A stretch of DNA of 64,000 nucleotides, from NCBI RefSeq assembly GCF_049472675.1, contig NZ_JAPNXM010000007.1:25521-89520 (forward strand), in the 5' to 3' direction. The stretch comes from Deferribacter thermophilus. Its GTDB lineage: Bacteria > Chrysiogenota > Deferribacteres > Deferribacterales > Deferribacteraceae. The position numbers and the translations under genes are program-made. Shown in pieces: positions 13,479-54,520 of the stretch (position 1 is the stretch's first letter; every line of letters starts with the position of its first letter). The notes below the pieces were generated by a model. That model was not told the DNA's origin. It saw nothing but the letters and a program-made list of their open reading frames with translations, and searched no databases.

Positions 13479-13993
13479 TAAACTATCTCCGCATTGTGAA
13501 CTTTTTCCAACTGCATCAAGCCAAATTTATGACCATCTTCATCAAGGCCTATAATACAATCCTTTGGAACAATCACTTTATACCCTCTACTTACAGCATC
13601 AGCAACAGTGTACATTACACAGATATTTGTCACAAGCCCTGTAACGATTAGCTGTTCAACACCCAAATCTTTCAAGATTTCATCTAAATTTGTGTTAAAA
13701 AAGCCTGAATACCTTGTTTTTTCAACAACAATATCACCATCTGAAGGTTTTAACTCTTCAACAACTTCAGCACCCTTTGTCCCTTTTACGCAGTGATGTG
13801 GCCAGATTTTAAACTCATCATCATCTTCATCATGAGCATCACAAACATAAATAACTGGATACCCCTCTTTTCTTGCTTTATCTATTTCTCTTTTAATATT
13901 TGGGATTATACTCTTAGCATTTGGCACCTGCAATGGAGCACCTTCTAAAACAAAATCGTTTAACATATCGATAATTATTAATGCCTTTTTCAT
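13478..13993 (-). CDS. Isochorismatase-family cysteine hydrolase (nicotinamidase-like)
   Basis: MKKALIIIDMLNDF N-terminus and catalytic Cys in a VTGLVTNICV context. Confidence 0.8.
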   Translation of the reverse strand: MKKALIIIDMLNDFVLEGAPLQVPNAKSIIPNIKREIDKARKEGYPVIYVCDAHDEDDDEFKIWPHHCVKGTKGAEVVEELKPSDGDIVVEKTRYSGFFNTNLDEILKDLGVEQLIVTGLVTNICVMYTVADAVSRGYKVIVPKDCIIGLDEDGHKFGLMQLEKVHNAEIV

Positions 13994-14833
13994 TTTTGCC
14001 TCCTTAGAGACTTTAAAATATCAAGCTGGTTTTTATAACTTTTATCCTCATCAAAAGGGGTTTCCAAAATGCCCAAAACACCATCTAACCTTTCATCATT
14101 CACAAGTTTCTCAAAAAATTCTAAACCTAATAAACCTCTACCGATATAGGCGTGTCTATCTATTTTTGATCCACACTCTTTATTTGTATCATTTAGGTGA
14201 AAAACTTTTATTTTATCTTTAAAATTAGTAAAAAAAGTATCAATTACTTCATCATATCTGTTTTTTAAATCATACCCTGCCGCATACATGTGGGCAGAAT
14301 CAAGACACACACCAATCTTTTCAGGAAATTTAGAATTTTGAATTATATAATCTATGCTCCCATTTATAACCTAAATTTGAGCCTTGGCCTGCTGTCACTT
14401 CAAGCAATGTCATAACATTAAAATGATACTCAGAATAAACTCTGTCAATATTTAGAACTATTTTATTTAACCCTTCTTGCTCGCCAATTCCTAAATGAGA
14501 GCCAGGATGCATTACATAAAAAGGAACATTCAGTTGATCACATCTTGACAACTCATCAATAAAACATTTAACTGACTTTTCCTCTGTCTCTTTTTTCGGA
14601 GAACAAAGATTTATCAAATAGGCACTATGGGCACAAATTCTATCAAAGCCTAAATTTTCTGCAAAAACTTTAAATTTATTTACATCTTTATCTGAATATG
14701 GCTTAGCAACCCACCTATTTGCATTTTTTGTAAAAATTTGTAAACACTCACAACCATCACTTTCTGCAAGTTTTAGGCTGTTGAAAACACCACCAGAAAT
14801 TGATTCATGAGCTCCAAGAAGCATGAGGCCCAC
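13990..14833 (-). pseudogene. nfo: Endonuclease IV (nfo) interrupted by a single frameshift near 14350-14358
   Basis: The 5' ORF ends ...TAGQGSNLGYKWEH. The 3' ORF continues in another frame as ..IDYIIQNSKFPEKIGVCLDSAHMYAAGYDL, which aligns with the Nfo core ..EHLAAIIDG..VGVCIDTCHAFAAGYDL. The two pieces together make about 280 aa. Confidence 0.7.
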
Positions 14834-15839: not shown

Positions 15840-17423
15840 TCACCACATTTTTTTTATAACTGCACCTTCATAATAAAAATTTAATATTTCGTCAAACCTT
15901 TTTCCTGCCTCTCCCAATGCTTTTCCACCCCACTGGGAATAACCAACGCCATGACCAAAACCACCACCTTTAAAAACTATTGAATTACCAACTTGTTGAA
16001 TACTAAACAATATATCATACAACTTTGCAGCTCTTCTTACAGTTGTGTAAGTCCTAAGTACCTTTGTCCCGCCTGAGTGGTTAATTTTGACTTTTACAAC
16101 TCTACCAGCAGGTGTAGTTTTGTAGGGTGAAATTGAATATATTGTCCCAATATTTACACCTTTCCTTCTCAAATAATTCCCAATTTCGTTTAAAGTTATT
16201 TTTTTAGTCCATCTACCCATCTTCTCCTTAGCACTATAAGGGTCAGGCTTAGCACGCATGTATGGATAACCTGTGCCAAAGATATATTTTGGATCATCGA
16301 TATACCAACCGGTGCTCGCCGTAAAAAATGACAAAATAGGCCTATCGCGGTATGTCAACACCAAACCAGCAGTCTCCAAGACTGCCCTAACCCCCTTTTT
16401 TGTTTCGTTTTTTATACCGTTATAGGCTTGATCACCTTCATTATCTACAACATCATAGCTCCAGTCTTCTCTATGCAATTTTTGATAAAGTGCATAAGTC
16501 CTTGCAGCTACTGCTTGAGCCTTTAAAGTCTCTAAAGGCCAGCTGCTTGGAGACTCACTTGTAACAACACTTTTTAAATAGTCTTCAATATTTAATATAT
16601 TGATAACATATAATTTACTCTTGGAGACAAAAATTTTAAAATACCCACGATATCCTCTATATCCATCCTTTTTTAAAAGATATAAATATGAACTGTTAGG
16701 ATAAATATAAACCGGCGAATAAAGCTGTCTTCCGTTTAAAATTACCATTTTTCCACTTAGATAAACACTAACAACCCCATTGATATTTAAAATTAACCTT
16801 CCTGAACTGTCCTTAACTGATATATTACCTTTTATTTTAGCTGATTTGCCTTTGAATAATCTTACCCTAATATCTGGAGCACCTTTAATATTTACAGGTG
16901 GCAATTCAAACTTCTTCTTAGGGGATACTAATGGTTTCTTTGTATATCTCTCCACAAAAAATGAAGCTGTATAGCGAAAGCGTCCAAAGGGGTAATATTG
17001 CAAATATAGTTTAAAATATTCTAAAGCCTTTTTTTCATCTCCAAAATCATTGTAAAGTAGTGCTAACTTGTATAAAGCGGTTTCACCTTGTGGTAAATCA
17101 GGAAATTTTCTAAATATTTCTTCATATATTTTTGCAGCTTCTTCAGGCTTATCCATGTAATGAGCAAAAAGTGTTGCCTTTTGAAGTAAAGCATCAGCAA
17201 CAATATATCTATTGTCAGTTGCTTCAAGAGCAGTTTCAAAAAATTCTAATGCGTCAAGATATTTGCCCACCTCAACATAATATTTCCCCTCGGCAATGGA
17301 TTGCCTTGCAAAAAGGATATCAGATACATTTGCATTATTATTTTCTGCATAAACAAATGAAACAAATATAAAAAATAAGACTGCTAACTTACTGCAAAAT
17401 CTGAACATCAATCTCATACTCAC
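15840..17423 (-). CDS. Secreted TPR-repeat protein with a C-terminal SpoIID/LytB domain
   Basis: Signal peptide, N-terminal TPR-like repeats, then the SpoIID/LytB amidase-enhancer region (..TGWYIDDPKY..). Overlaps the upstream gene by 35 nt. Confidence 0.7.
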   Translation of the reverse strand: MSMRLMFRFCSKLAVLFFIFVSFVYAENNNANVSDILFARQSIAEGKYYVEVGKYLDALEFFETALEATDNRYIVADALLQKATLFAHYMDKPEEAAKIYEEIFRKFPDLPQGETALYKLALLYNDFGDEKKALEYFKLYLQYYPFGRFRYTASFFVERYTKKPLVSPKKKFELPPVNIKGAPDIRVRLFKGKSAKIKGNISVKDSSGRLILNINGVVSVYLSGKMVILNGRQLYSPVYIYPNSSYLYLLKKDGYRGYRGYFKIFVSKSKLYVINILNIEDYLKSVVTSESPSSWPLETLKAQAVAARTYALYQKLHREDWSYDVVDNEGDQAYNGIKNETKKGVRAVLETAGLVLTYRDRPILSFFTASTGWYIDDPKYIFGTGYPYMRAKPDPYSAKEKMGRWTKKITLNEIGNYLRRKGVNIGTIYSISPYKTTPAGRVVKVKINHSGGTKVLRTYTTVRRAAKLYDILFSIQQVGNSIVFKGGGFGHGVGYSQWGGKALGEAGKRFDEILNFYYEGAVIKKMW

Positions 17424-18498
17424 TAAATTTTACTACTTTATAATTTGGTCTGCTATTAATTGATGCAGCCAAGTATAAGGCCTTTTCAGGATACTCTACT
17501 ACTAATGTGTTCATCCCTTGTTCATTAACTGATAATACCCAACTTACATACTGAATAAAGTTTTTAAACTGCATCATCTGCTGCATATCATTAACATTTG
17601 TCAAAACAAGACGAATTTTTTTAGCAGAACCTTTAATTTTATTTACAATAGTACTAATCAACTCATTTGAAACTTTCCCACTCATATCTTCTATCATTTT
17701 ATATGTAGCATCTTCAACAGTAGGCCCCATACCTCTACCAGAAATATAGCCACTAGCTAAAATTACCCTTTGCCCATTCCTATTTGTAATCAATCTATAA
17801 ACTAATCTACCTGTTACAATATTGTAAGGCAAACTAACACCATAACCCACATTTTTACCTTCGCGAGCTGTCAAAGTTGTAGTAATTTTACCCACAAGCA
17901 TAACATTTGATAAATATTGATATGCCAAGTTTCTTATCATTAGAAAATTATTTGTTCTTAATGCTGTGTCCAGTTGACTAACAGAAAAAGTGCTACCTGA
18001 TGCAATATCTATCACTTCATAACCTTGAACCGATAATTCATTTATCAATTTTTCACTTAAAGGGTTAGATTCCTCAACTCTCCCATCAGGCATTACAAGT
18101 GGTAAAATTACTGAAATTGCTGTATTTCTTGAAATAGCTCCCAAAGCCTCTTTTGCTTTATTTGGCACTATAAAAGCCGAAATTTGAACCCAATAAACAC
18201 CTTGATTTTGCCCTTCTTTAAGAATTTGAAAACCTTTTATAACACCTTGAGTTTCAGACTTTATCGCTTCATCAACCAAAACGGCATTCTGAACAACACT
18301 TTGAGCTTTTACTTTGACTCCTGCTGCCTGTTCTAAGGCAAACCACTTTGCTCTTGCTATAGCCTGCAATCTTGCTGTTTGAATATCATTATTTACTATT
18401 TCTGCTTCTCCATAAGACTGTACAAAAATACCCTGCTCTCCCATCGCAAAGACAAAAACAGGAATTAATAAAAACAAAAAAACAATAATTTTCTTCAT
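17389..18498 (-). CDS. Secreted LPP20/FlgP-like domain protein
   Basis: Signal peptide. The N-terminal half (..TARLQAIARAKWFALEQAAGVKV..GVYWVQISAFIVP) resembles the LPP20/FlgP lipoprotein fold. Confidence 0.5.
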   Translation of the reverse strand: MKKIIVFLFLLIPVFVFAMGEQGIFVQSYGEAEIVNNDIQTARLQAIARAKWFALEQAAGVKVKAQSVVQNAVLVDEAIKSETQGVIKGFQILKEGQNQGVYWVQISAFIVPNKAKEALGAISRNTAISVILPLVMPDGRVEESNPLSEKLINELSVQGYEVIDIASGSTFSVSQLDTALRTNNFLMIRNLAYQYLSNVMLVGKITTTLTAREGKNVGYGVSLPYNIVTGRLVYRLITNRNGQRVILASGYISGRGMGPTVEDATYKMIEDMSGKVSNELISTIVNKIKGSAKKIRLVLTNVNDMQQMMQFKNFIQYVSWVLSVNEQGMNTLVVEYPEKALYLAASINSRPNYKVVKFSEYEIDVQILQ

Positions 18499-18550
18499 AA
18501 CTTACCCTCAACTAATAGCTTTAATTTAAACAGAAAGTAGGGCAAAAGCC

Positions 18551-19645
18551 CTACTTTAATACAAATACTACTTTAGCACCTTCTAAGAAATTTGTTTTCT
18601 GATTAGATGAAAAAATAGCAGTGGCATCATCACCAGATACCTTTACATCAGTAAACTTCACAACACCTACTGCCTTTACAACAAGAGGATTTTTAACCCC
18701 TCTTTCTGAAAGAATAGCTTTTGCCTTACCAATTTCGTTTGTGTAATCACCACACCCTCTTTGTGCTAAAATATCTTCAGCTATCTTAGTTGGATCATAA
18801 ATTATTTCACCTTTTTCATTCAAAATTCTATTTATTAATGCTGGTCTAAAGTTTGTGCCAGTAGTATCTACAATTAACCCATCATAAACCTGTGGTGCAG
18901 GAGGTACAACCTGAGGTTGAAATGCTGGAGCAGGTGGAACTGCATTAAATATAGCTTGTCTAGCATTTGGATCCTGAAACATTGTAGTAACAAAAGATTT
19001 TGTGCCCACCTCTAAACAAACATAACCAACACCCTGGCTCATATCATAATATCTACCACACTCTCTTGCTCCCTGTAAAAAGCCTTGAACAGTTGATCTT
19101 ATAACATCATTTACTAACAAACCATTTTGAACAGTCGTATCACCAGCAACTGTAACACCCTGAAGAACCTCTAATAAATCTCTCTGAGCTACAACCTTTG
19201 CAGCCCTTAATGCTGCATATCTTCTCTGTCCAGCCTCTGATTCACCTATAACTCTAATATATCCAGTTGCAAATGCAGCTTGAGGATTTGTTATTGGCTG
19301 TGGTAATGGTGGCATACCACCCATCATTTGAGGTTGAGGCTGCATCATTTGAGGATTATATTGACCACCTCCATAAGGTTGTTGCATAGGCTGTTGCATT
19401 GGTTGCTGCATCATCTGTCCACCATATTGACCCGGTTGTTGCATCATTTGTTGATTATTTGGTTGTTGATAGTTTGGTGCCTGTTGATTATATGGAGCAG
19501 GTTGCTGATAAGCAGGGTTATACGGTTGATTATAAGGTTGATTATATGTCTGTGCAAAAACAGACAAACTAAACAGCATAAATATAAATAGTAATATAGC
19601 ATACACAAATTTATTTACTCTCATCACCGCCTCCTTAATAAACAT
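18551..19645 (-). CDS. Secreted protein with a Q/P/Y-rich low-complexity N-terminus and a C-terminal LPP20/FlgP-like domain
   Basis: YNQPYNQPYNPAYQQP...MQQPMQQPMQQP repeats, then ..GYIRVIGESEAGQRRYAALRAAKVVAQRDLLE.. in LPP20 style. Confidence 0.55.
   Translation of the reverse strand: MFIKEAVMRVNKFVYAILLFIFMLFSLSVFAQTYNQPYNQPYNPAYQQPAPYNQQAPNYQQPNNQQMMQQPGQYGGQMMQQPMQQPMQQPYGGGQYNPQMMQPQPQMMGGMPPLPQPITNPQAAFATGYIRVIGESEAGQRRYAALRAAKVVAQRDLLEVLQGVTVAGDTTVQNGLLVNDVIRSTVQGFLQGARECGRYYDMSQGVGYVCLEVGTKSFVTTMFQDPNARQAIFNAVPPAPAFQPQVVPPAPQVYDGLIVDTTGTNFRPALINRILNEKGEIIYDPTKIAEDILAQRGCGDYTNEIGKAKAILSERGVKNPLVVKAVGVVKFTDVKVSGDDATAIFSSNQKTNFLEGAKVVFVLK
19330..19560. repeat. Imperfect tandem DNA repeats encoding the Q/P-rich region of the LPP20-like protein
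   Basis: Reiterated GGTTGTTGCAT / CATTTGTTG motifs. They also create a spurious + strand ORF at 19328-19591. Confidence 0.6.
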
Positions 19646-20849
19646 TCAAAGTCTGTCTCAACACTCTAATAGCCAATAGAGCTTCAGCACCATCAACATT
19701 ATCATCTGGCCTAAATTCACCAGATAACTCTGTTTCCATCAAACCTCTTGTAACAACATTCATTACAGCATTAAACCATGGTGCTGTAGGGCTAACATCT
19801 GGATAAGGAGAATTTTCCTGCCCAAAATACTTTCTTGGTAATGATTCATCACTAGTCAATTTAACCAATACATCTTCTAAAATTAGTGCAAACTCCTTAC
19901 GAGTTAATGGTTTATTTGGGAAAAACAGATAAGCCTTTGTCGTCTCATCATATATTGGAGAAAGACCTCTTATATTCCACTTAAGTATTGTTTCAATCTC
20001 TGGTCTAAATGGATGGTTTAAAATATCAGCAGGGATAAATTCTGGTTTCATTTTTGCAATTTGCGATTTTACAGGTATACGCCCTTCCATAATCTTTTCA
20101 ATTCTAAGTTCATCCACTAAAAGTGCGGCGAAATCCGCTCTTGAAACCTCATCTTTTACTGCAATCTTTTTACCTACATCACCTACTGTAATTCCAGCCA
20201 TAGCCCTTACGATCTTGTCAGTTTTCTTCCACATTGCATTTGCAGGAGCATGCCATTTACTTTGCCTTGACATATTCAAAACATTTGCAAAAGAATCCCT
20301 TGCTTTTTGAAACTCTTCACCTTTGAGATAAGCAACACCCATAAAATATTCTAGAGCCTCAGGCCCTTGATAATAAGGTAATTTGTTAAAATTAACATCT
20401 TTTTCTATACTTTTAGCATCATCATAAAAATCTTTTGCATCTTCTAACCAATCCTCTAAACGCAATTCAGTATAAGTTCTTATACCTGTAACATAATAAA
20501 TATATTTTTGATCTTTATTCTTTGCATATTTTTTAGCCTTCTTTAAACTTTCAAGACTTCTTTCTACCCAAACCTGTTTTTCACCCATATCAGCTTTACT
20601 ATTTGCTATCATTGCCAAAGTTAAAGATTTTCCTGCATAACCAGGAGAATATTTTGGATCACATTGAATTGAACGCTCAAATTTTATATTTGCATTGTTT
20701 ATGTCACCTTTTTCTATCAATTCCATCCCAGTAAAATAGTTATGCTCTGGATTATCAGTTGGCGAATTACAAACAGTTTTAGGTTTAGAGCAGCTAACAA
20801 ACATAAACGCAACTATCACACTTAAAACTAATAATAATTTTCTTCTCAT
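19635..20849 (-). CDS. Lipoprotein with TPR-like N-terminal region and C-terminal repeats resembling SLH-like motifs
   Basis: Lipobox FVSC. C-terminal segments such as FRPDDNVDGAEALLAIRVL loosely resemble S-layer-homology motifs. Overlaps the downstream gene by 11 nt. Confidence 0.45.
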   Translation of the reverse strand: MRRKLLLVLSVIVAFMFVSCSKPKTVCNSPTDNPEHNYFTGMELIEKGDINNANIKFERSIQCDPKYSPGYAGKSLTLAMIANSKADMGEKQVWVERSLESLKKAKKYAKNKDQKYIYYVTGIRTYTELRLEDWLEDAKDFYDDAKSIEKDVNFNKLPYYQGPEALEYFMGVAYLKGEEFQKARDSFANVLNMSRQSKWHAPANAMWKKTDKIVRAMAGITVGDVGKKIAVKDEVSRADFAALLVDELRIEKIMEGRIPVKSQIAKMKPEFIPADILNHPFRPEIETILKWNIRGLSPIYDETTKAYLFFPNKPLTRKEFALILEDVLVKLTSDESLPRKYFGQENSPYPDVSPTAPWFNAVMNVVTRGLMETELSGEFRPDDNVDGAEALLAIRVLRQTLNVY

Positions 20850-20860
20850 TTTATTACCCC

Positions 20861-22051
20861 CTAAAATAGTTTTTTCATCAATCCTTGACCTTCTAATTTA
20901 GCCCTTAGAACTAAAGTACCAATTTTAAGCCTTTTTCTATGTTGCTCATCCCCCTCTATTTTTACCCAACACTGATTTTCATCAACCTGATCAGTAACAA
21001 TTAATTCAACAGGGATTTTTGCTTTACTACAACTATGTGTTCCTTTGAAAGGATCTCTAATTTCCATAAAATCATAAGCTATTAACTTTTGCCCTGGTTT
21101 AATACCGTTTGCCCTACCAAGATTTACAAGAGCCACCTGCTTATTTCCTCTCAATTGAATTATATAACCTTTTATGGCAAACAGTTGTGATAATTCAGGT
21201 TTTATATCCAAAGCAGCTTCACCCATAGCTTTTTTAGCTGCAGTAATTATCAATTCTGGATTAAAATTTGGTTGTTTACCTGCAAGTTCTCTGCCTTTAA
21301 CTTTTTTAGATGCAATAATTCTACCTGTGGCAACATCTATAATTTTTACAGTCATTTCTACATTTACATTCCATCCCTCTGTAGTTGCTTCTAAAATAGA
21401 TAAAGCAAGATTTGCTAACGCATTATCTGATTTCTTCTTTTTAGAAGGTGGTACATACTCTGCTTTAATATTATCAACAGAACCAGTAATAATATAACTA
21501 ACACCAGCAATTTTACCTAATTGAACTAATGTATTGGGATCTGCAACATTCATCTGAAAACCCTGCTCTTGCATAACCTGTTGAATATTAGATCTTGTAA
21601 AAACCTCTACACCACCCATATTTACAACAATATCTTCAACAGCACTTTGTGCATACGCCCCTATATTAGGTGATATCTGTCTCATAAATGTATTTATATC
21701 TTTTGAATATTTAACTTTTGTTTTGCTAGCTCCAACATAACCAACCCCAACAGCACCAGGCGCAACAACAGCTCCAGCAACACCCCCTTCTACATGAGTC
21801 CTAGTACCTTGACCTCTAATAGAAGTATTTGAACCTGTCATTTTCCCAAAAGTAGTATTATTTTGAAAATCTACTACCGCTACTCTTAGCTGCCTTGTTT
21901 CATACTGAGCTCTACATACTTGAGGAACCTGCACCTGCTCAGTATCTGCAGGCACTATTGATAAAGCCATAGGATCAACTTTTGGTGTCCCACAAGAAAC
22001 AAGAAAAATAATAACTGTTACAATAAGTAAACAAAGACAAATTTTCCTCAT
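20861..22051 (-). CDS. CsgG-like outer-membrane lipoprotein
   Basis: Lipobox LVSC. RVAVVDFQNNT resembles the CsgG N-terminal signature and a central segment resembles the CsgG fold. There is an extra C-terminal region. Confidence 0.5.
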   Translation of the reverse strand: MRKICLCLLIVTVIIFLVSCGTPKVDPMALSIVPADTEQVQVPQVCRAQYETRQLRVAVVDFQNNTTFGKMTGSNTSIRGQGTRTHVEGGVAGAVVAPGAVGVGYVGASKTKVKYSKDINTFMRQISPNIGAYAQSAVEDIVVNMGGVEVFTRSNIQQVMQEQGFQMNVADPNTLVQLGKIAGVSYIITGSVDNIKAEYVPPSKKKKSDNALANLALSILEATTEGWNVNVEMTVKIIDVATGRIIASKKVKGRELAGKQPNFNPELIITAAKKAMGEAALDIKPELSQLFAIKGYIIQLRGNKQVALVNLGRANGIKPGQKLIAYDFMEIRDPFKGTHSCSKAKIPVELIVTDQVDENQCWVKIEGDEQHRKRLKIGTLVLRAKLEGQGLMKKLF

Positions 22052-22150
22052 AACCCACTCCCTCTTTATTTTTTATTCATTTTATAATATAAAGTATAAC
22101 ACATTATATCACAAAAATATATTTTTTTTAAAAATTTTTAGGAGTCAATT

Positions 22151-22540
22151 ATGAATGAAAAGTCACTTTGGGAATTTTTAGAAAAACACTTAAACGCCAT
22201 CTACACAGGTGATTTTAAAACCTATGAAGAAACAACACACAAAGACCTCACTTTATACGAATGGTTTGTAGCTCCTCATAGAATAGAAGGTTTAAATTTT
22301 CACAAATTTATGATGGAAAATAACTGGGCAAATACTCATGACGGTTTTAATATTCATCTCACAGATAAAAAAGCTCAAATATATAATGATACAGCTATAC
22401 TTACCTATACATTAATAATTTCCTACAAAAATGAAGGGAAGATAGAGCATAAAGTCGTAAATGAAACAAGAGTGGTAATAAAATTTGGCAACACACTAAA
22501 AGTAGTCCATGTACATAAAAGCCCAGGGAAAGAGCAATAA
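22151..22540 (+). CDS. Hypothetical SnoaL/NTF2-like small protein
   Basis: 129 aa. The fold call rests on the pattern alone. Confidence 0.45.
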   Translation: MNEKSLWEFLEKHLNAIYTGDFKTYEETTHKDLTLYEWFVAPHRIEGLNFHKFMMENNWANTHDGFNIHLTDKKAQIYNDTAILTYTLIISYKNEGKIEHKVVNETRVVIKFGNTLKVVHVHKSPGKEQ

Positions 22541-22564
22541 TGCTCTTCCCCTCTTCTCTTTTAA

Positions 22565-34476: not shown

Positions 34477-35304
34477 GTGGATGAGATGGTAGAAAAATAT
34501 CAAAAATGTGCAGAATTAATCAAAGAAGCTGAAGTTTTGATTATTACTGCAGGAGCAGGAATTGGTGTTGATTCAGGCTTACCTGATTTTAGAGGAGATA
34601 AAGGGTTCTGGAAAGCTTACCCGATGTATGAAAGATTAGGATTAAATTTTGTTCAGTGTGCTAATCCCGTACACTTTGAGAGTGATCCATCTTTTGGTTG
34701 GGGTTTTTATGGGCACCGTTTAGAGATGTACAGAAATACAACCCCACATAAAGGTTTTTACATAATGCTGGAATGGATTGAAAAATTTGGATTAGATTAT
34801 TTTGTCGTAACATCAAATGTGGATGGACAATTTCAAAAGGCAGGTTACGAAGAAGATAAAATCTACGAAATCCATGGCTCAATTCATCACCTTCAGTGTG
34901 TAAAACCCTGCACAATGGCAATTTGGGAAAACACAGAACATATTGAAATAGATTATGATACAATGAGAGCTAAAAATATCCCCAGATGTAAATTTTGTGG
35001 TGATGTAGCAAGACCAAATATTTTAATGTTTGGAGATTATTCATGGATTGCTGACAGATCGCACAGACAATCAGTTTTATTTGATAATTTCTTAGAAGAA
35101 CACGAAAACAGTAAAATTGTAGTTATAGAGATTGGAGCAGGTACTGCAATCCCATCAATAAGATACACCAGCGAAAGGATAGGCAGATATCATAATGCAA
35201 CAGTCATAAGAATTAACCCAAGAGAGCCTCATATCAACAAACCACACATTTCTATCCCAGAAGGAGGCCTTAAAGCACTATCTGAAATCAACAAATATAT
35301 TTAA
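34477..35304 (+). CDS. Sir2-family NAD-dependent protein deacylase
   Basis: GAGIGVDSGLPDFRG motif and a CxxC..CxxC zinc ribbon. 275 aa. Confidence 0.8.
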   Translation: MDEMVEKYQKCAELIKEAEVLIITAGAGIGVDSGLPDFRGDKGFWKAYPMYERLGLNFVQCANPVHFESDPSFGWGFYGHRLEMYRNTTPHKGFYIMLEWIEKFGLDYFVVTSNVDGQFQKAGYEEDKIYEIHGSIHHLQCVKPCTMAIWENTEHIEIDYDTMRAKNIPRCKFCGDVARPNILMFGDYSWIADRSHRQSVLFDNFLEEHENSKIVVIEIGAGTAIPSIRYTSERIGRYHNATVIRINPREPHINKPHISIPEGGLKALSEINKYI

Positions 35305-35310
35305 AATATA

Positions 35311-35811
35311 TTATTTTTGTAAAACTTTTATAATTTCACCAATATACATACGATGATAATCTTTTTTGGGGTAGAATGTTTCTATTTCCTTATCAAGAAA
35401 ATTAGACGGATTTAAATCTGAAAAGTATAGCTTTTTGCAACAATAAACAGTATCTGCTTCTTCAAAATATATAAAATTATCATCATTTATTACGCTTAGT
35501 CCAGTTTCCTTAACTTTATCTACATCATACCCAGATTTAGTTCCGCAAAAGTTTAAAACATCTCTGTATTCTTCATCAAAAAAAGAAAGCGTAAAGTATT
35601 CTGTCTTTTCCATTAGCTCAAAAGTATATCGTGTAGGCCTAATAAAAGCATAAACCACATTTTTATGCCATAAAATACCAAAACCTCCCCAACTTGCAGT
35701 CATAGGGTTTACTTTCTCAGCAGTTGGAGTAATAAGCATCCATCTATCATTAATTTCAGTAAAAGGGTTAAAATTTAGTTCATTTATTTTTACCTTTTTA
35801 AACATTTTCAC
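35311..35811 (-). CDS. Flavin reductase-like / split-barrel FMN-binding protein
   Basis: 166 aa. The pattern is consistent with the flavin reductase-like domain. Weak. Confidence 0.5.
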   Translation of the reverse strand: MKMFKKVKINELNFNPFTEINDRWMLITPTAEKVNPMTASWGGFGILWHKNVVYAFIRPTRYTFELMEKTEYFTLSFFDEEYRDVLNFCGTKSGYDVDKVKETGLSVINDDNFIYFEEADTVYCCKKLYFSDLNPSNFLDKEIETFYPKKDYHRMYIGEIIKVLQK

Positions 35812-35877
35812 CTCCGATTAAAGAAATTAACTAATTCTGGATTGTAATTCAACACTTTTTTTGATAAAAAATGTTGG

Positions 35878-37194
35878 ATGAATAATAAACAACTAACATA
35901 TACCAAGATTTTTAAATTTTGGTTCCCTCTTGCCTCTACATGGTTGATGATGGCTCTTGAAGGCCCTATACTTGCAGCTATAATAGCAAGACTACCCAAT
36001 GAAAAGGTAAATTTAGCAGCCTATGGTATTGCTTTAGCCTTTGGGCTAATTCTGGAATCTCCAATAATAATGATAATGGCAGCTGCTACAGCACTTATAA
36101 AGGATAAAAATTCTTATCAAAAAATACGTAATTTTACCATGATGTTAAATTTTATTGTTACAATATGCATTTTGATATTACTTTTACCTCAAGTTTTTAA
36201 CTTTATTGCAGGAAAACTTATTGGTTTAAAGGAACCTGTTTATACACTAACATATAATGCCACAATGTTTTTATTGCCCTGGCCTGGAGCAATTGGTTAT
36301 AGAAGACTTTATCAAGGTGTTTTAATAGTCAATGACAAAACAAAGTTTATAGCATACAGTACAATTATTAGACTTGTTTCAAACATTTCAACTGCATTTT
36401 TATTATATAAATTTACTATAATTGATGGGGCTTACATTGGAACTATAGCTCTATCAACAGGAGTTATTTTTGAAGCGTTAGCTGTTAGAATTATGGCTCA
36501 CAAATCTGTAAAAGAGATAATTAATAGAAAACCAACAAAGGAACAACTTACTTACAAATTTATATCAAAATATTATTACCCTTTAGCTCTAACCCCTTTT
36601 ATTGCTTTATCATCTCAACCAATCGTAACATTCTTCTTAGGTAAAAGTTTAAAGGCTTTGGAGTCTTTAGCCGTAATGCCAGTAGTTTACTCGCTAACCT
36701 TTATTTTTAGAAGTATAGGGTTATCCTATCAAGAAGTAATAATAGCCTTAACAAATCAGTATCCAGATTTTAAACATAAAATTAGAAACTTTGCAATAAT
36801 CCTTGCCATCACAGTTACCTCTTTATTATATAGTATAACTGCTACACCACTTTCTGATATTTATTTTTTAAAACTTAGCGGATTATCTTATGAGTTGGCA
36901 GAATTTGCCAAAACCCCAGCTTTAATAATGTCAATAATGCCAGCACTTACACTATTATTAACCTATCAAAGAAGTATTTTTATTTTACAAAAAATTACCT
37001 TGCCTATCACTATTGGAACTATTATAGAAGTTTTAGGAATTATTATCGTCATATCATTTCTAATAAAAATGAAGATATTCGTAGGTGCAATATGTGCTGC
37101 CTTGGCATTTGTCTCAGGAAGACTATTAGCAAATATTTATTTCCACATTAGTATCTTTTTTGTAAAACGGAGAAAAAATGTTAAAAATGTATAA
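35878..37194 (+). CDS. Polytopic membrane protein of the MOP/MATE-like exporter superfamily
   Basis: 438 aa with about 12 predicted TM segments. Confidence 0.45.
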   Translation: MNNKQLTYTKIFKFWFPLASTWLMMALEGPILAAIIARLPNEKVNLAAYGIALAFGLILESPIIMIMAAATALIKDKNSYQKIRNFTMMLNFIVTICILILLLPQVFNFIAGKLIGLKEPVYTLTYNATMFLLPWPGAIGYRRLYQGVLIVNDKTKFIAYSTIIRLVSNISTAFLLYKFTIIDGAYIGTIALSTGVIFEALAVRIMAHKSVKEIINRKPTKEQLTYKFISKYYYPLALTPFIALSSQPIVTFFLGKSLKALESLAVMPVVYSLTFIFRSIGLSYQEVIIALTNQYPDFKHKIRNFAIILAITVTSLLYSITATPLSDIYFLKLSGLSYELAEFAKTPALIMSIMPALTLLLTYQRSIFILQKITLPITIGTIIEVLGIIIVISFLIKMKIFVGAICAALAFVSGRLLANIYFHISIFFVKRRKNVKNV

Positions 37195-37260
37195 TAATTT
37201 TCAAATAATAAATTTTTATTGTTGTTTGATTATGTGGTAAAGATTTGCTAAAATAATATT

Positions 37261-37908
37261 ATGAAAATATTGTTGATTGAAGACGATTTGTTACTAGGAG
37301 AAAGTTTAAAGGAATTTCTAGAATCAGAGAAAAATGATGTGGACTGGATAATTGACGATAGAGAATACGAATATAAGCTATTATCAAATGAGTATGATAT
37401 TATACTTCTTGATTTGATGTTAAAATTTAATAAAGGTGAAGAACTTTTAAAAAAAATTAAAAAGCTAAAAAACATTCCTATTATAATCATTACTGCAAAA
37501 TTTGACTTATCTGATAAAGAAACCTGTTTTTTGTTAGGAGCTGATGACTATATTACCAAACCCTTTGAACCAAAAGAATTGTTGCTTAGAATAAACGCTG
37601 TCACCAGAAGATATTTTGACAATAAAAATAGAATTTATATATCAGATGAAATTGTCATCGATATTACCCAACAATCGCTTTTCATAAATAATGAGCTTAT
37701 CCCTCTTACTAAAAAAGAGTGGGAGCTTTTATACATTTTAGCAAAAAATAGAGGTAAAATTGTATCAAACGAATGTATCCTAAATTATGTCTGGCAGGAA
37801 AACCCAGTAGGTACAGAATCAATCAGAACCTATATAAAAAAACTTAGAGAAATCTTAGGAAAGGATTTAATAGAAACCCACAAAGGTCGGGGGTATCGAT
37901 TAAAATAA
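37261..37908 (+). CDS. OmpR-family response regulator
   Basis: Receiver domain (DD..E.., LDLML, K) plus a C-terminal winged-helix trans_reg_C. Confidence 0.85.
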   Translation: MKILLIEDDLLLGESLKEFLESEKNDVDWIIDDREYEYKLLSNEYDIILLDLMLKFNKGEELLKKIKKLKNIPIIIITAKFDLSDKETCFLLGADDYITKPFEPKELLLRINAVTRRYFDNKNRIYISDEIVIDITQQSLFINNELIPLTKKEWELLYILAKNRGKIVSNECILNYVWQENPVGTESIRTYIKKLREILGKDLIETHKGRGYRLK

Positions 37909-37964
37909 AATTTGAAATAAAAATTTTTATCGCTTTAGAGCTAATCATTGCCATTGTCCTCAGT

Positions 37965-38858
37965 ATGATTAACTTAATTTTCATTTTTAGCTACAAAATA
38001 GAAATTGAAGAACAATTAAAAAAAGAAATTCCTCTTTACCTAACTCTAAAAGCCACCAATAAAAAATTTAAACTACCAGATTATTTGCTTATTGAAAATA
38101 AACTATCATTCAAAAAAGATTACACCCTTTTTAATGTAAACGGAGAAAAATACATCTATATCAAATCTTCATACATAAAAGACAAGCTCAAAGATAAGCT
38201 CTTTATAATTTTTTACTGGGATATGATAGCAATCTTTTCTGTGGCAATATTGTATTATCTTGTTTTATACAGGTTGATAATAAAAGAAAAAAATTATCTA
38301 AAAAACTTTGAGATTCTACTTCTAATTTTTTCTCACAAACTGAGAAACTTTTTAACCACCTCAAAACTCAATCTTCATTTAATCAAAACAGAAAACAGAG
38401 TCCCACTGGAAAGATTAATTCATGCTCATGAAAACCTTGCAAAAGATTTAGAAAATATTCAATATTTTATCAAAAGATTACCCACTCAAAATCAAAGTAA
38501 AAATAAAATAAATATACCTATTTTAGTTAAATCTTTAATCGAAGAGCTGGAGCTAAACAAACTTTTTTCTATAAAATTTAATTGTTCTGAAATTTATATT
38601 AATGCACCTTATCAAGATATTTACTTTGCCTTATACCTTTTGTTTGATAATATCTTAAAACATGCAGGTCAAAATGTCACAATAAAATGCGGCAAAATCA
38701 AAAAATTAAAATATCTCATTATAAAAAATGATATAACTGAAAATGAAACAAAAGGGCTTGGAGTAGGTTTATATGTTGCAGAAAAACTCCTTACCACCAA
38801 TGGCTTCAAAATCAAAAGAAAAATAACCTCAACCTTCACAATCGCCATCAAATTTTAA
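37965..38858 (+). CDS. Compact sensor histidine kinase
   Basis: H-box SHKLRNFL and G-box GLGVGLYVAEKLL. 297 aa. Confidence 0.65.
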   Translation: MINLIFIFSYKIEIEEQLKKEIPLYLTLKATNKKFKLPDYLLIENKLSFKKDYTLFNVNGEKYIYIKSSYIKDKLKDKLFIIFYWDMIAIFSVAILYYLVLYRLIIKEKNYLKNFEILLLIFSHKLRNFLTTSKLNLHLIKTENRVPLERLIHAHENLAKDLENIQYFIKRLPTQNQSKNKINIPILVKSLIEELELNKLFSIKFNCSEIYINAPYQDIYFALYLLFDNILKHAGQNVTIKCGKIKKLKYLIIKNDITENETKGLGVGLYVAEKLLTTNGFKIKRKITSTFTIAIKF

Positions 38859-38872
38859 CAACAAATTTAATA

Positions 38873-39022
38873 GGCTGTTGCACAATAAAGAAAATAATAT
38901 AATTTTTGAGATTGCTTCACTGACGTTAGCAATGACCAATTTCGCGTCATTGCGAGGAGCGAATGCGACGAAGCAATCTATCGATTATTAATTTTCCCAA
39001 CTTAAACTATTGTACAGCAGCC
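38873..39022. mobile_element. MITE-like element (~150 bp) with TIRs GGCTGTTGCACAATA / TATTGTACAGCAGCC and two internal palindromic units in opposite orientation
   Basis: TIRs at 38873-38887 and 39008-39022. Internal units at 38910-38936 and 38946-38978. Confidence 0.55.
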
Positions 39023-39136
39023 TTAGAAAGTTCATTTGCAATTTAAAACGAAATATTTTACAATAAATTAGTATTTTTCACGATTTTTTTACAAAAAAGA
39101 AATAATTTGATATTTTAAGTTAAGTGGAGGAATTGT

Positions 39137-39445
39137 ATGAAAAAAATATTTCTTGTATTAATCATATGTTTTTCATTATCTATAATGAGTTTTGCAAAAG
39201 AAGAATCTAATAATCTACCTAAAGAGCAAGTTGTTAATTTAAAAACAGGATATATAAAAAGCTTTAAAAATGAATTCATATCTTTGGAAGATGGTTTCTA
39301 TTTTTATGTTGATGAAAATACTGTAATTATTAACCCTGAAAATAGAAAAGTAGATAAAAAATTCTTAAAATCTGCATATAAAATTAAATATAAAAACAAC
39401 GGAAATTATGTATATTACATAAAAATATTATCATTAGTTAAATAG
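39137..39445 (+). CDS. Small secreted protein translationally coupled to pilY1
   Basis: 102 aa with a signal peptide. Its stop overlaps the pilY1 start. Confidence 0.45.
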   Translation: MKKIFLVLIICFSLSIMSFAKEESNNLPKEQVVNLKTGYIKSFKNEFISLEDGFYFYVDENTVIINPENRKVDKKFLKSAYKIKYKNNGNYVYYIKILSLVK

Positions 39446-42400
39446 TGAGGATTGCTATGGGCAAATGCATTACAATATCTTTAATAATAATTTTAATGTG
39501 TTTTTTTAATCCAGTATTATCTCAAGCTGCAAAACCATCAAACAACTCAGATGCTGGACAAATGGTTACTTACTGCTCTATACCACCATTTGTTTCCTCA
39601 GCTATTCAGCCAAATGTGCTAATAATACTGGATAATTCTGGAAGCATGTTTGAATTTGTATATAAAGAAGAAAAATCTACAAGATCATACTCTAACGATT
39701 GTTCAAATGATGCTACAGTTTATTCAGGATACAAAGATAATGAAACCTATTTTGGCCTTTTTGATCCTAATAAGAAATACTCATATAATACTACTAATGA
39801 TTATTTCTATGAAATAGAAAATGGTGAATGGAGTGGTAATTTTTTAAATTGGTTAACAACCAGGAGAATAGATGCAGTAAAAAAAGTATTAACTGGAGGA
39901 AAATATATCATCACCAATGATGGAAATATTTTGTTAACTGCAACAGATAATTTTGATAGAGATAGTCGAAAAATATTAGAAAATAATGTACAAAATCTCA
40001 CTGGACTTAATAATTATAACGATCAAGGTGCTTATTTTTACTTTTACAATAATAATAATAATAATAATAATAACTTTGTTTATTTTGATGTTAGACCTGC
40101 AACATGGAATAATAACTGTTGGGTAGTTGATAATAATCCTACAACATTTAGAGTTGCTTTGAAAGTCGAAACACAACCCTCTGGGATAATACAGAAAACA
40201 TGGGATAAAGTAAGATATGGACTTTTCACCTTTAATTATGACGATGGAGGTCATTTAGTTTCTGAAATAGGGAGTAAATATGATAATCCAACATTTATTG
40301 ATGACATAAATAAAATCACTCCGTCAACTTGGACTCCACTTGGAGAAACTCTATATGAAGCTACTTTATATTTTAAAGGAGATAAAACTTTTTATAACGG
40401 TGATTATACATATAATAGCCCTATCCAATATAGTTGTCAGCAAAATTATGTTCTTATTTTAACTGATGGTGAATCAACAAGGGATAAAAACTTTCCAAAC
40501 AAACTTGATAGTAATGACCCAAATAGCACAATTGATAATCTTCTTGACATTATTGAAGAAAATGAGGGGTTTAATGATAACAGATTACATAATGACTTAA
40601 ATGATTCCAATGGATCATATAGCTTAGCTGCAGTATCTTATTGGGCTCATACTACAGATTTAAGAGAAGACTTAACAGGTACTCAAAAATTAAATATTTT
40701 TACAATCTTTGCATTTGATGATTCGGAAAACGCAAAAGATTTACTTAAACTTTCAGCAAAATACGGTTCTTTTGCTGATAATAATTTTAATAATTTGCCA
40801 GACAATTCAAACGAATGGGATGCAAACAATGATAATATTTCTGACAACTATTTCGAGGTCAATAAAGCAACTGATTTAGAAACAAGTTTAAGTACAACAA
40901 TTGCTAAAATTTTGCAAGGGGCAGCAGCAGGTTCTGGTGTAGCCCTCATGACTGATAGGACAAGTAGCACAAGTATTGCTATCCAAGGTTTATTTGAAAA
41001 CAAAAAGGATATTGATAATTCAACATTGACATGGATTGGACGTTTATTTGGGTGGTGGGTTTATGCAATAGAAAAAGATAATGAAAGTATAAAAGTTAAC
41101 ATTAGAGAAGATACAATAAATAATAAAAAGTTTAAATTAACAGAAGATAGAATTTTAACATATGATTATGACGTATTAGATAATAAATTAGTGCTAAAAC
41201 TTATTACATGTGATGACAATGGCTCTGGTCTAATTGATAATTCTAGTTGTAAAACTTTCTATTCTTTTGACGACATTACACCAATATGGGATGCAAGTGA
41301 AGAATTATTAAATAGAGAAGCTGATAATAGAACAATTTACACATATAATGATAATGGAGATCTTATTCCAATTGATGATTACAATAACTCAGAATTGTTT
41401 GGTACAGATAATACCACATATATCACATCTTTAATAGATTACATAAAAGGTATTGATTCTGATAACTATAGAAATAGAACAATTAAAGTTGATAATGAAC
41501 AAAAAGTATGGAAGTTAGGTGACATTATCCACTCTAGACCTATGTTGGTAAAGTATGATGATTATACTGTTGCTTATGTTGGAGCAAATGACGGAATGCT
41601 TCATGCATTTAAGGTAGGTTATGCTAAAAAATTAAGAGATGATCCAGAGGGTTATTTAGCAGTCTTACAAAATTCTAAAAATGACAGTGGACAGAATGAA
41701 ATAGGTAAAGAGCTATGGGGATTTATACCACATTCTGTTATCCCATATTTAAAATTTCTGGCAGACCCAAATTATTGCCATTTATATTATGTGGATGCAC
41801 AACCATATATAATAGAAGAAGATGGAAAGAAAATCTTAATCGGCGGATTAAGATTAGGTGGGGGTTGCTATTGTAGTAAGCAGGAAGCTGCTGATGAATG
41901 TGTCAAAAGTCCTGATAACGAAAATGGACTATCGTCATACTTTGCACTAGACATTACAGATCCAGAAAATCCAAAATTTCTGTGGGAATTTAATCATAAA
42001 GACTTAGGTTTTTCATACTCTGGTCCTGCTTATATAAAACGCCCCGAAGGTAAATATATAATGTTTTCTTCAGGACCTACTACATATGATGGTCACTCCT
42101 CTAAGTCATTGAAATTTTTTATTTTAAAATTAGATGAAGATTTCAAATTAATAAATAATACTCCAGATGTTTTAGACGGTAAAACTCAAAACGCATTTGG
42201 TGGTAAACTATATACAACTGGTATTGATAAAAATGAAGATGGTTTTACTGATTTTATAGTAACAGGTATTGTAAAAAATGTAGGTAAAACAAATTCTCAA
42301 GGTGGTTTAGTCGTAATCCATACCAAAGGAGGAGATCCATCAGCTTGGACTGTTTATCAAAATTATTATAATTTTAGCCAAAACCCAACCGTTTCTAAAG

Positions 42401-43113
42401 TCGAAGCAGGCAAATGTTTTAACTTAGGTTATTATTTGTTTTTTGGTAGCGGTAGATATTTTTATCCTGGAGATGATGAAGGAACCTCAGGTGTTGGAAA
42501 CGAAGAGAATTATATTTACGGAATACCTTTTGACTGTGATGTTGAAGAAGGTTGCAAAGGGACTGTTAACAATATTAAATCTGTAGAGCTATTAGATGAC
42601 CCTTGTAATGACCTAACAAATTTTGAAATCACAAACAATGAGTCTAAGGAACTAGGGTGGAAAATAAAATTAGACCCTACTGATAATGTATATTTAAAGG
42701 AAAGAAATATTATAGACCCTGTTTTAGTAAAAAATAAAAACAATCCAGCTAATAGATATACTAATAATAGAGATTACTGGACATCGCAAATCATTACATT
42801 TATTACAAACAAATATGAAAAAGATCCATGTATTTTAAAAGGTAAAAGTAAAATATGGGCACTTAACTGTGCTACTGGTGGTCCTTTAAGACCAGACAAT
42901 ATTACTCACAAAATTTGTAGTAATTATCAAGTAACTGACGACTTTGCTATATTTACTACAGCTAGTACAGGTGAAATTTCTATTGTAACAGATGACGATG
43001 TAGGAACTGAAAGATTCATCGAAAAAGATAGTAATATTATAGCTTCTGATTTAGGTGAAGACTTAACTGGTAACAATAGAAAAGGTAGAATACTTTTATG
43101 GATAGAAAAATAA
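39445..43113 (+). CDS. pilY1: Type IV pilus tip-associated adhesin, PilY1/PilC-like, with an N-terminal vWA domain
   Basis: Signal peptide. vWA MIDAS motif LIILDNSGSM. C-terminal PilY1-type region with a Ca-binding-like loop DKNEDGFTD. 1222 aa, followed by four prepilin genes. Confidence 0.7.
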   Translation: MRIAMGKCITISLIIILMCFFNPVLSQAAKPSNNSDAGQMVTYCSIPPFVSSAIQPNVLIILDNSGSMFEFVYKEEKSTRSYSNDCSNDATVYSGYKDNETYFGLFDPNKKYSYNTTNDYFYEIENGEWSGNFLNWLTTRRIDAVKKVLTGGKYIITNDGNILLTATDNFDRDSRKILENNVQNLTGLNNYNDQGAYFYFYNNNNNNNNNFVYFDVRPATWNNNCWVVDNNPTTFRVALKVETQPSGIIQKTWDKVRYGLFTFNYDDGGHLVSEIGSKYDNPTFIDDINKITPSTWTPLGETLYEATLYFKGDKTFYNGDYTYNSPIQYSCQQNYVLILTDGESTRDKNFPNKLDSNDPNSTIDNLLDIIEENEGFNDNRLHNDLNDSNGSYSLAAVSYWAHTTDLREDLTGTQKLNIFTIFAFDDSENAKDLLKLSAKYGSFADNNFNNLPDNSNEWDANNDNISDNYFEVNKATDLETSLSTTIAKILQGAAAGSGVALMTDRTSSTSIAIQGLFENKKDIDNSTLTWIGRLFGWWVYAIEKDNESIKVNIREDTINNKKFKLTEDRILTYDYDVLDNKLVLKLITCDDNGSGLIDNSSCKTFYSFDDITPIWDASEELLNREADNRTIYTYNDNGDLIPIDDYNNSELFGTDNTTYITSLIDYIKGIDSDNYRNRTIKVDNEQKVWKLGDIIHSRPMLVKYDDYTVAYVGANDGMLHAFKVGYAKKLRDDPEGYLAVLQNSKNDSGQNEIGKELWGFIPHSVIPYLKFLADPNYCHLYYVDAQPYIIEEDGKKILIGGLRLGGGCYCSKQEAADECVKSPDNENGLSSYFALDITDPENPKFLWEFNHKDLGFSYSGPAYIKRPEGKYIMFSSGPTTYDGHSSKSLKFFILKLDEDFKLINNTPDVLDGKTQNAFGGKLYTTGIDKNEDGFTDFIVTGIVKNVGKTNSQGGLVVIHTKGGDPSAWTVYQNYYNFSQNPTVSKVEAGKCFNLGYYLFFGSGRYFYPGDDEGTSGVGNEENYIYGIPFDCDVEEGCKGTVNNIKSVELLDDPCNDLTNFEITNNESKELGWKIKLDPTDNVYLKERNIIDPVLVKNKNNPANRYTNNRDYWTSQIITFITNKYEKDPCILKGKSKIWALNCATGGPLRPDNITHKICSNYQVTDDFAIFTTASTGEISIVTDDDVGTERFIEKDSNIIASDLGEDLTGNNRKGRILLWIEK
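40048..40074 (+). repeat. (AAT)8-AAC trinucleotide tract encoding N9 inside pilY1
   Basis: Direct observation: FYFYNNNNNNNNNFVYF. Confidence 0.9.
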
Positions 43114-54479: not shown

Positions 54480-54480
54480 A

Positions 54481-54520
54481 TAAAAAAAAGGGCTACAAAA
54501 TGCAGCCCTTAACCCTTTAT
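54481..54520. terminator. Bidirectional terminator hairpin (AGGGCTACA-aaa-TGCAGCCCT) between convergent genes
   Basis: 9-bp stem with one mismatch, flanked by A8 upstream and a T-rich tract downstream. Confidence 0.65.

Follow-up and report, generated by a model that had tools for sequence, protein, structure and literature searches.

We examined a five-gene operon of Deferribacter thermophilus within a 64,000-nt stretch of contig NZ_JAPNXM010000007.1 (the window, whose positions are used throughout). A preliminary description of this DNA had placed five co-oriented genes here, with overlapping or nearly abutting junctions, and our list of open reading frames (ORFs) agrees exactly with that placement. 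We refer to the genes as p1 to p5. They and their main features (aa, amino acids) are as follows.

20861-22051, minus strand: p1, 396-aa ORF; alpha/beta core of the PelC/CsgG/LpoB/FlgT_M type (about aa 55-290) and FlgT_C-like beta-barrel (about aa 294-385)
21677-21856, minus strand: 60-residue insert of p1 (aa 66-125), after strand 1, conserved across the family
19635-20849, minus strand: p2, 404-aa ORF; C-terminal SLH region at about aa 232-400 (two complete repeats, one partial), preceded by a TPR-like region at about aa 30-200
18551-19645, minus strand: p3, 364-aa ORF; Q/P/M/Y low-complexity region, FlgP-type SHS2 domain with hairpin insert (D1), proline-rich linker, and a domain like D2 of Tp0624 (D2)
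19289-19552, minus strand: low-complexity region of p3 (aa 32-119; 88 aa; Q 31%, P 20%, M 12%, Y 10%)
18554-18907, minus strand: D2 of p3 (aa 247-364)
17389-18498, minus strand: p4, 369-aa ORF; N-terminal SHS2 domain of the FlgT_N/FlgP type (aa 26-110, 18169-18423), which carries the hairpin insert, followed by two more regions
15840-17423, minus strand: p5, 527-aa ORF; TPR region (aa 44-146) and lytic transglycosylase domain of the SpoIID/LytB type (aa 265-526)

The genes are tightly packed: p1 and p2 are separated by 11 nt, p2 and p3 overlap by 11 nt, p3 and p4 are separated by 52 nt, and p4 and p5 overlap by 35 nt. All five are real genes, with strong homologs. Their order is kept in D. abyssi (L009), which has all five. 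p1 is 100% identical to a known D. thermophilus protein.

Proteins encoded by the operon

The preliminary description presented p1 as a lipoprotein with a CsgG-like domain and an additional C-terminal domain, which is correct. p1 has a lipobox (LVSC, aa 17-20, with Cys20, as read from the translation), it matches CsgG (PF03783) from Pfam with E = 3.1e-8 and 33.6 bits (the cutoff is 20.8), and its C-terminal part is FlgT_C-like. The CsgG domain was matched in 50 of 50 family members (best E value, 2.9e-15), LpoB in 49, FlgT_C in 33, and FlgT_M in 23; in p1 itself, the Pfam matches to FlgT_C, LpoB, and FlgT_M are weak. The p1-type protein has counterparts of both the middle and the C-terminal domain of FlgT.

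Formation of a CsgG-type pore had also been raised as something to test, and for this we found no support. When the p1 family profile was compared to solved structures, nothing was significant, and no CsgG chain was matched even at E ≤ 10. By fold comparison, PelC, LpoB, and TolB-N are equally near to p1, and across its two domains FlgT is the nearest. Against the fold of p1, several proteins that do not form pores (PelC, LpoB, TolB-N, LptE, and GNA1162) do as well as CsgG or better. The nonameric pore of CsgG is formed by a constriction loop together with two transmembrane beta-hairpins, which are amphipathic. We found no evidence of such hairpins in p1: at their positions in the CsgG topology, the monomer model of p1 has a short helix and a tight turn, and the insert after strand 1 is unrelated to them. 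The insert of p1 has the motif NNTTF...G.AGV.V.PGA.G...R....KLGE, with an uncharged stretch of Gly, Ala, and Val. It has a predicted local distance difference test score of about 30 in the monomer model and, when scanned by itself, matched no Pfam family, including no glycine-zipper family.

p2 was described as a lipoprotein with TPR-like repeats and SLH-like C-terminal motifs. This fits our results: p2 has a lipobox (FVSC, with Cys20, as read from the translation) and two stretches that match SLH (PF00395, E = 1.9e-15), along with a weak match to TPR_2 and a weak BamD/YbgF-like TPR match in the N-terminal region. Across a family of 74 sequences, both the cysteine of the lipobox and the SLH motifs are retained. 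The sequence of p2 did not match any solved structure. The ligand pathway of SLH domains involves the pyruvyltransferase CsaB and a pyruvylated secondary wall polymer, or else polyamine-modified peptidoglycan.

The other three proteins have ordinary signal peptides, as read from their translations. For p3, the preliminary description was right about secretion and about a region of the Q/P/Y-rich type. The likeness to FlgP was also right, but it is seen with the family profile; the sequence of p3 has no Pfam match. The profile matches five solved FlgP chains, with E values of 4.3e-12 for FlgP of Campylobacter jejuni (9hmf_C), 2.1e-11 for 8z5n_2 (which is named FlgP), and 8e-8 for the weakest of the other three. 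The alignment to FlgP runs without gaps through the hairpin, and D1 is homologous to the N-terminal domain of p4 (hhalign, 95.7%). The 88-aa low-complexity region, which lies at the mature N terminus, has no charged residue, is also rich in N and G, and contains short imperfect 12-nt repeats. It is missing from most homologs, which cover only about 68% of p3, and is restricted to some lineages. Similar QPY-rich stretches do occur in a few unrelated p3 homologs (P0218, P0265, and P0277).

With its last 250 aa, p3 falls into a far larger family (591 matches). Otherwise, D2 is seen only in Tp0624 of Treponema, and solved structures gave no flagellar counterpart. The D2 profile matches 1585 representative clusters at E ≤ 1e-3, and D2 mostly forms the C terminus of proteins of 270-340 aa.

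p4 is secreted and FlgP-like with extra C-terminal regions, as described, but it is FlgT_N-like rather than a member of LPP20 proper. It matches FlgT_N from Pfam with E = 4.5e-9 (as do 40 of the 43 family members), and it reaches only E = 0.2 for LPP20. FlgP and FlgT_N are sister families of LPP20. The p4 profile matches FlgP of C. jejuni (9hmf_C) with E = 1.1e-6, and p4 matches LipL46 from NCBIfam with E = 4e-7, which is far below the cutoff of that model. We considered whether the middle domain of p4 might have a TolB-N/CsgG fold, but this was not demonstrated: its sole support is weak matches to FlgO in 9 of the 43 family members. Also, hhalign found no relationship between p4 and p1 apart from their signal peptides. 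Overall, profile searches upheld the CsgG match of p1 and gave significant matches to FlgP and FlgT_N for the LPP20-related part of the operon.

Both p3 and p4 retain the segment of the hairpin insert, which aligns to the hairpin of FlgP without gaps. In the FlgP family, oligomerization into rings is correlated with the presence of a hairpin inserted between the helix and strand 2 of SHS2, as found in FlgP and FlgT (Drobnic et al., PMC12222027).

The assignment of p5 as a secreted protein with TPR and SpoIID/LytB regions is clear. It matches TIGR02669 (SpoIID/LytB) with E = 3.3e-63 and 214.2 bits (the cutoff is 83.3), as well as SpoIID from Pfam (E = 7.6e-27) and TPR families. Against the sporulation equivalog, TIGR02870, it scores 149.8 bits, which is below the cutoff of 234.75. 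p5 also matches a solved SpoIID (4rwr, E = 4e-28), and the motif ...SE...LKAQAVAARTY is kept in the alignment to 4rwr and 5i1t. The glutamate of this motif is the catalytic residue according to work in C. difficile and B. subtilis. Relative to the SpoIID/LytB proteins of Bacillus and Clostridioides, p5 shares the catalytic domain and the conserved glutamate motif. It differs in being from a nonsporulating diderm, in its N-terminal fusion to TPR, in scoring below the sporulation cutoff, and in having no spoIIP or spoIIM nearby.

Conservation and gene neighborhoods

With the p3 profile, we scanned a single genome from each species, and we annotated the 80 resulting loci with the profiles of all five proteins. 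These loci span the Thermodesulfobacteriota (Desulfobacterales, Desulfovibrionales, Thermodesulfobacteria, and Syntrophobacter), the Aquificales, the Magnetococcales, and Deferribacter. p2 is immediately upstream of p3 in 73 of the 80 loci, p4 or p1 is present in 48 of the 56 loci that have at least 6 kb upstream, and p5 is present in 41 of the 80. The most tightly conserved unit is p2-p3, rather than the CsgG-like gene. Homologs of p1 and p4 are found in the Deferribacterales, in Persephonella (Aquificota), and in the Syntrophales, which have the p4-p1 pair on its own. The main gene orders are as follows.

Layout A: p4, two unassigned lipoproteins, p2, p3, AsmA/YhdP-like protein, beta-helix and TPR protein, TPR-SpoIID protein
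Layout B: p4, GNA1162-like protein, CsgG-like protein, p2, p3, small beta-barrel protein, MlaE, MlaF, MlaD, TPR protein
Layout C (the Deferribacter window): p1, p2, p3, p4, and sometimes p5
Aquificales and Thermosulfurimonas: AsmA-like protein, p5, beta-helix/TPR protein, p4, p1, p2, p3

The likeness to CsgG/DUF799 modules that the preliminary description pointed out is borne out by 23-24 related loci, in which GNA1162-like (DUF799) and CsgG-like genes occupy the slot of p1, immediately upstream of p2-p3. In hhalign comparisons, the CsgG-like protein of layout B aligns over the full length of p1 with a probability of 70%, and members of the GNA1162-like family align to the core of p1 with a probability of 90%. 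For the two unassigned lipoprotein families in loci of the Desulfobacterales type (322 aa and 447 aa), neither hhalign nor Pfam nor NCBIfam gave any tie to p1, to the CsgG-like protein, or to the GNA1162-like protein.

Downstream sequence of at least 3 kb is available for 61 loci: an AsmA-like gene follows in 27 of these and Mla genes in 20, for a total of 47 with one of the two, whereas none have both and 14 have neither. The link to AsmA-like genes extends across several orders and two phyla. The AsmA-like and Mla genes of related loci point to a role in envelope and lipid architecture. Related loci also encode a protein of about 780-920 aa with a right-handed beta-helix and TPR, which is absent from the Deferribacter operon. 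We considered a role in a secretin, type II secretion, or pilus system, as a pilin-like gene lies upstream at 8 loci and the AsmA-like protein has a GspN-like C terminus; we rejected this, as there is no conserved secretin or ATPase nearby.

Two of the related loci have unusual arrangements. In Persephonella sp. (L001, 9239-15859), there are a divergent LPP20 gene, a p1-like gene, a gene for a 622-aa p4-like protein, a second LPP20 gene, a 131-aa ORF, an MltC_N/SLT gene, and a convergent SLT gene. In Persephonella, a lytic transglycosylase of the SLT type occupies the position of SpoIID. A metagenome-assembled genome from the Magnetococcales (L067, 1202-17706) has two p4-like genes, two p3-like genes, p2, p5, and the beta-helix/TPR gene in one array, which suggests an internal duplication of the module.

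Some homologs are fusion proteins. P0360, a metagenomic protein of 667 aa (L089, 5806-7809), combines a FlgT_N-like SHS2 domain (p4 profile, 2.5e-5), CsgG from Pfam (2.4e-9), and a full p3-like D1-D2 (2.9e-65). Because it fuses p4-, p1-, and p3-type proteins, it supports a physical complex of the three. The gene for P0360 clusters with DUF1425 (YcfL-like), LpoB-like, and DUF6844 genes, its neighbors being the LpoB-like gene and genes for other lipoproteins, and this locus looks like a further variant of the module. In other fusions, D1-D2 is joined to Sel1 repeats, or D2 is joined to caspase-PEGA or trypsin-like domains.

We also considered whether the operon has flagellar neighbors. As the preliminary description noted, neither curli genes nor flagellar structural genes adjoin it. 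More broadly, we drew neighbor clusters from 88 related loci, and of the conserved neighbors that were profile-scanned, none were flagellar. The operon therefore does not seem to belong to a locus for the flagellar hook and basal body, an arrangement that the preliminary description had identified as the one that would make it a known type of disk. Strain NaphS2 (L077) has the complete layout A, and this strain encodes no flagellum system, according to a comparative genomics paper (PMC6129605). These results make it unlikely that the module is strictly flagellar. Some motile carriers, D. thermophilus among them, might nonetheless use it in association with flagella. Within the window, at 52887-56229, FapA (flagellar assembly protein A, with both domains) adjoins a methyl-accepting chemotaxis protein with a Tll0287-like sensor domain. 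These two are the only flagellum-related genes that we found in the window, and they are about 31 kb from the operon.

Proposed function

The preliminary description proposed an uncharacterized assembly of the outer membrane and periplasm that is linked to an enzyme for peptidoglycan remodeling, and both the domain matches and the gene neighborhoods support this. More specifically, the operon may encode a nonflagellar periplasmic scaffold that is anchored in the outer membrane, tethered to the wall, and built from the folds of the H-ring and the basal disk; we think that the chances of this being correct are about even. The fold families of the components are all known, and their combination resembles H-ring-like assemblies and envelope assemblies with lipoprotein rings. 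In the literature, we did not find any description of this combination of proteins or of nonflagellar paralogs of FlgP.

In such a scaffold, p1 and p2, whose lipoboxes are evident, would be sorted to the outer membrane. p1 might form a ring beneath it, as do PelC, CsgG, PqiC, and the FlgT middle and C-terminal domains, which share its fold. p3 and p4 would be soluble in the periplasm and could oligomerize through the hairpin inserts that we observed in their SHS2 domains. The SLH domain of p2 would tie the assembly to the wall in trans, in place of the OmpA-like domain of Tp0624. p5 might cut glycan strands locally, so that the assembly, or cargo passing through it, fits the sacculus. The cellular role could then be coupling of the outer membrane to the wall, together with docking of lipid-transport bridges that cross the envelope, analogous to PqiC-PqiB and YnbE-YdbH. 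We propose a role in the envelope and in lipid bridges because the clusters of most other lineages include AsmA-like or MlaEFD (MCE) genes.

Several observations weigh against this proposal. We did not find any AsmA-like or Mla gene in the Deferribacter operon or in the rest of the window, so the link to lipid bridges rests on other lineages, and docking of such bridges is the weakest step for Deferribacter. The loci of the Mla type share extended synteny and probably come from one clade, which amounts to roughly one evolutionary event. The proposed formation of rings is extrapolated from homologous domains. No fold is confirmed for p4 beyond its N-terminal domain, in its middle and C-terminal parts. 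D. thermophilus does have flagellum-related genes (FapA and the chemotaxis protein). Finally, fbp begins just 8 nt past p5, and the transcript may extend beyond p5.

It is also conceivable, but rather unlikely in our view, that these loci represent a widespread and undescribed machine: a ring or lattice of FlgT/FlgP-like proteins under the outer membrane, with an SLH pin to the wall and its own lytic transglycosylase, that forms the outer-membrane terminus of AsmA-like or MCE bridges. It might even be the nonflagellar stock from which the proteins of the H-ring and the basal disk arose.

Alternative explanations

The operon might instead encode the outer disk (H-ring or basal disk) of the polar motor of Deferribacter, encoded apart from the flagellar genes as flgP and flgQ are in Campylobacter. 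SpoIID would then make the hole in the wall, and the TPR and SLH proteins would be scaffolds like PflA and PflB. Most of the lineages that carry the module are described as motile. The homology of p3, p4, and p1 to FlgP, FlgT_N, and FlgT_M/FlgT_C is what such a disk would predict, as is the presence of FapA and a chemotaxis protein in the window, and high-torque motors typically have TPR scaffolds and lipoprotein disks (PMC12222027). However, of the conserved neighbors that were profile-scanned at the 88 loci, none are flagellar, and the full module is present in NaphS2, which is reported to lack a flagellum system. The partners that the module does have (AsmA-like, beta-helix/TPR, MlaEFD, GNA1162-like, and CsgG-like proteins) include no known part of the motor, and D2 has no flagellar counterpart among solved structures. 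We consider a flagellar disk to be improbable.

There are two other explanations. p1 could be a secretion channel of the CsgG type that exports a substrate, possibly p3, whose region rich in Q, N, P, and Y might form an amyloid-like or adhesive fiber (as in curli or the HfaA/B/D holdfast anchor), with the other proteins as periplasmic accessories. The CsgG match, which is above the cutoff in all 50 family members, is consistent with this, and so are the 88 uncharged residues of p3 and the conserved, hydrophobic, Gly-rich insert of p1, which could enter the membrane. Yet the p1 profile did not match any solved CsgG chain, nonpore folds score as well or better, the model has a helix and a tight turn where the hairpins of CsgG lie, and most p3 homologs lack the low-complexity region. 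There is also no curlin-like gene: we did not find any csgA/B/E/F-type genes near the operon in the window or in the conserved neighbor clusters of the 88 loci. This makes a channel very unlikely. Alternatively, the operon could act in export or modification of an exopolysaccharide, with p1 as a PelC-like funnel, the TPR proteins resembling PelB or AlgK, and the beta-helix protein of related loci resembling AlgG or PelA. That protein, with its right-handed beta-helix and TPR, is the evidence in favor, but its gene is absent from the Deferribacter operon; the conserved neighbor clusters include no glycosyltransferase, synthase, porin of the Wza/PelB type, or flippase; and the FlgP/FlgT_N and SLH domains would be left unaccounted for. 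Exopolysaccharide export seems about as unlikely as a channel. Of these explanations, we prefer the nonflagellar scaffold.

Comparison with known systems

The closest relatives of the proposed scaffold are the H-ring of Vibrio (FlgT, FlgP, and FlgO) and the basal disk of Campylobacter (FlgP/FlgQ and the TPR proteins PflA/PflB). The operon shares with them FlgT_N (in p4), the FlgP-type SHS2 domain with its hairpin (in p3 and p4), and FlgT_M- and FlgT_C-like domains (in p1), as well as TPR partners and, if p1 and p2 are sorted as predicted, a lipid anchor below the outer membrane. Unlike in the H-ring, the parts of FlgT are divided between two genes, and the operon adds the Tp0624-type D2, SLH, the Gly-rich insert of p1, and a dedicated SpoIID-type enzyme. 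Furthermore, the operon is not linked to flgH, flgI, motX, or motY, and the module is found in a strain that is reported to lack flagella.

Tp0624 of Treponema pallidum (PDB 5JIR) has tandem D1 and D2 domains, which were previously uncharacterized, fused to an OmpA-like domain that binds the wall (PMC5104382). p3 shares the tandem folds of D1 (SHS2-like) and D2. However, Tp0624 has its own C-terminal OmpA-like domain, whereas p3 stops after D2 (aa 364), and its SLH partner is a lipoprotein in its own right.

Outer-membrane lipoproteins are known to cap lipid bridges of the MCE and AsmA-like types, as in PqiC-PqiB and YnbE-YdbH (PMC10897342, PMC11126948). In contrast to those systems, there is no transporter gene in the Deferribacter operon or in the window, and an MCE or AsmA-like partner is seen only in related loci. 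The operon is also much larger, with five proteins that include a wall tether and a wall hydrolase. Relative to clusters of CsgG-like and GNA1162-like (DUF799) genes, the operon has no GNA1162-like gene, DUF4810 was not seen, and p1 has two additional parts, namely the FlgT_C-like barrel and the insert rich in Gly.

To our knowledge, FlgP, FlgT, and FlgO have been described only as accessories of flagellar motors with high torque. FlgP belongs to a broad family, and its relatives within this family have not been studied (Campylobacter motor paper, PMC12222027). The module gives this family a conserved genomic identity outside flagella, with defined partners: an SLH tether, a lipoprotein with the PelC/CsgG fold, and an enzyme of the SpoIID type, joined in most lineages by an AsmA-like or MCE system. 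It also supplies a context for D1-D2 of Tp0624 and for the clusters of CsgG/DUF799 lipoproteins. If our proposal is correct, then it bears on how the outer membrane is coupled to the wall in bacteria without Lpp-type tethers, on how lipid bridges cross the sacculus and dock beyond it, and on the origin of the outer disks of flagella.

Other features of the window

Two features lie upstream of p1.

22103-22132, minus strand: candidate promoter of the sigma-70 type (TTTAAA, 18-nt spacer, TATAAT, with TG upstream), within the 99-nt gap 5' of p1
22525-22552, minus strand: terminator-like hairpin, at the end of the gene upstream of the operon

The candidate promoter matches the consensus at just 10 of 12 positions, and promoter-like sites are no more numerous in this region than in shuffled sequences.

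Elsewhere in the window, two long ORFs on the plus strand had no match in Pfam (E ≤ 1e-5) or NCBIfam (E ≤ 0.01): one of 438 aa (35878-37194) and one of 1222 aa (39445-43113), which is the first of a long array of plus-strand genes. Both the GC skew and the orientation of the genes switch at about 35000-39500, and the sequence at 39.0-39.5 kb is very AT rich (GC content of 0.21). We considered whether a replication origin might lie at the flip in GC skew (about 36-40 kb), but dropped this idea, as a search did not show a cluster of DnaA boxes. Finally, a gene that resembles endonuclease IV, as judged by eye from the translations, appears to be split at 13990-14833 on the minus strand: one ORF of 167 aa (14330-14833) and another of 106 aa (13990-14310) lie in separate frames. 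A frameshift or a sequencing error could account for this, or the gene may be a pseudogene.

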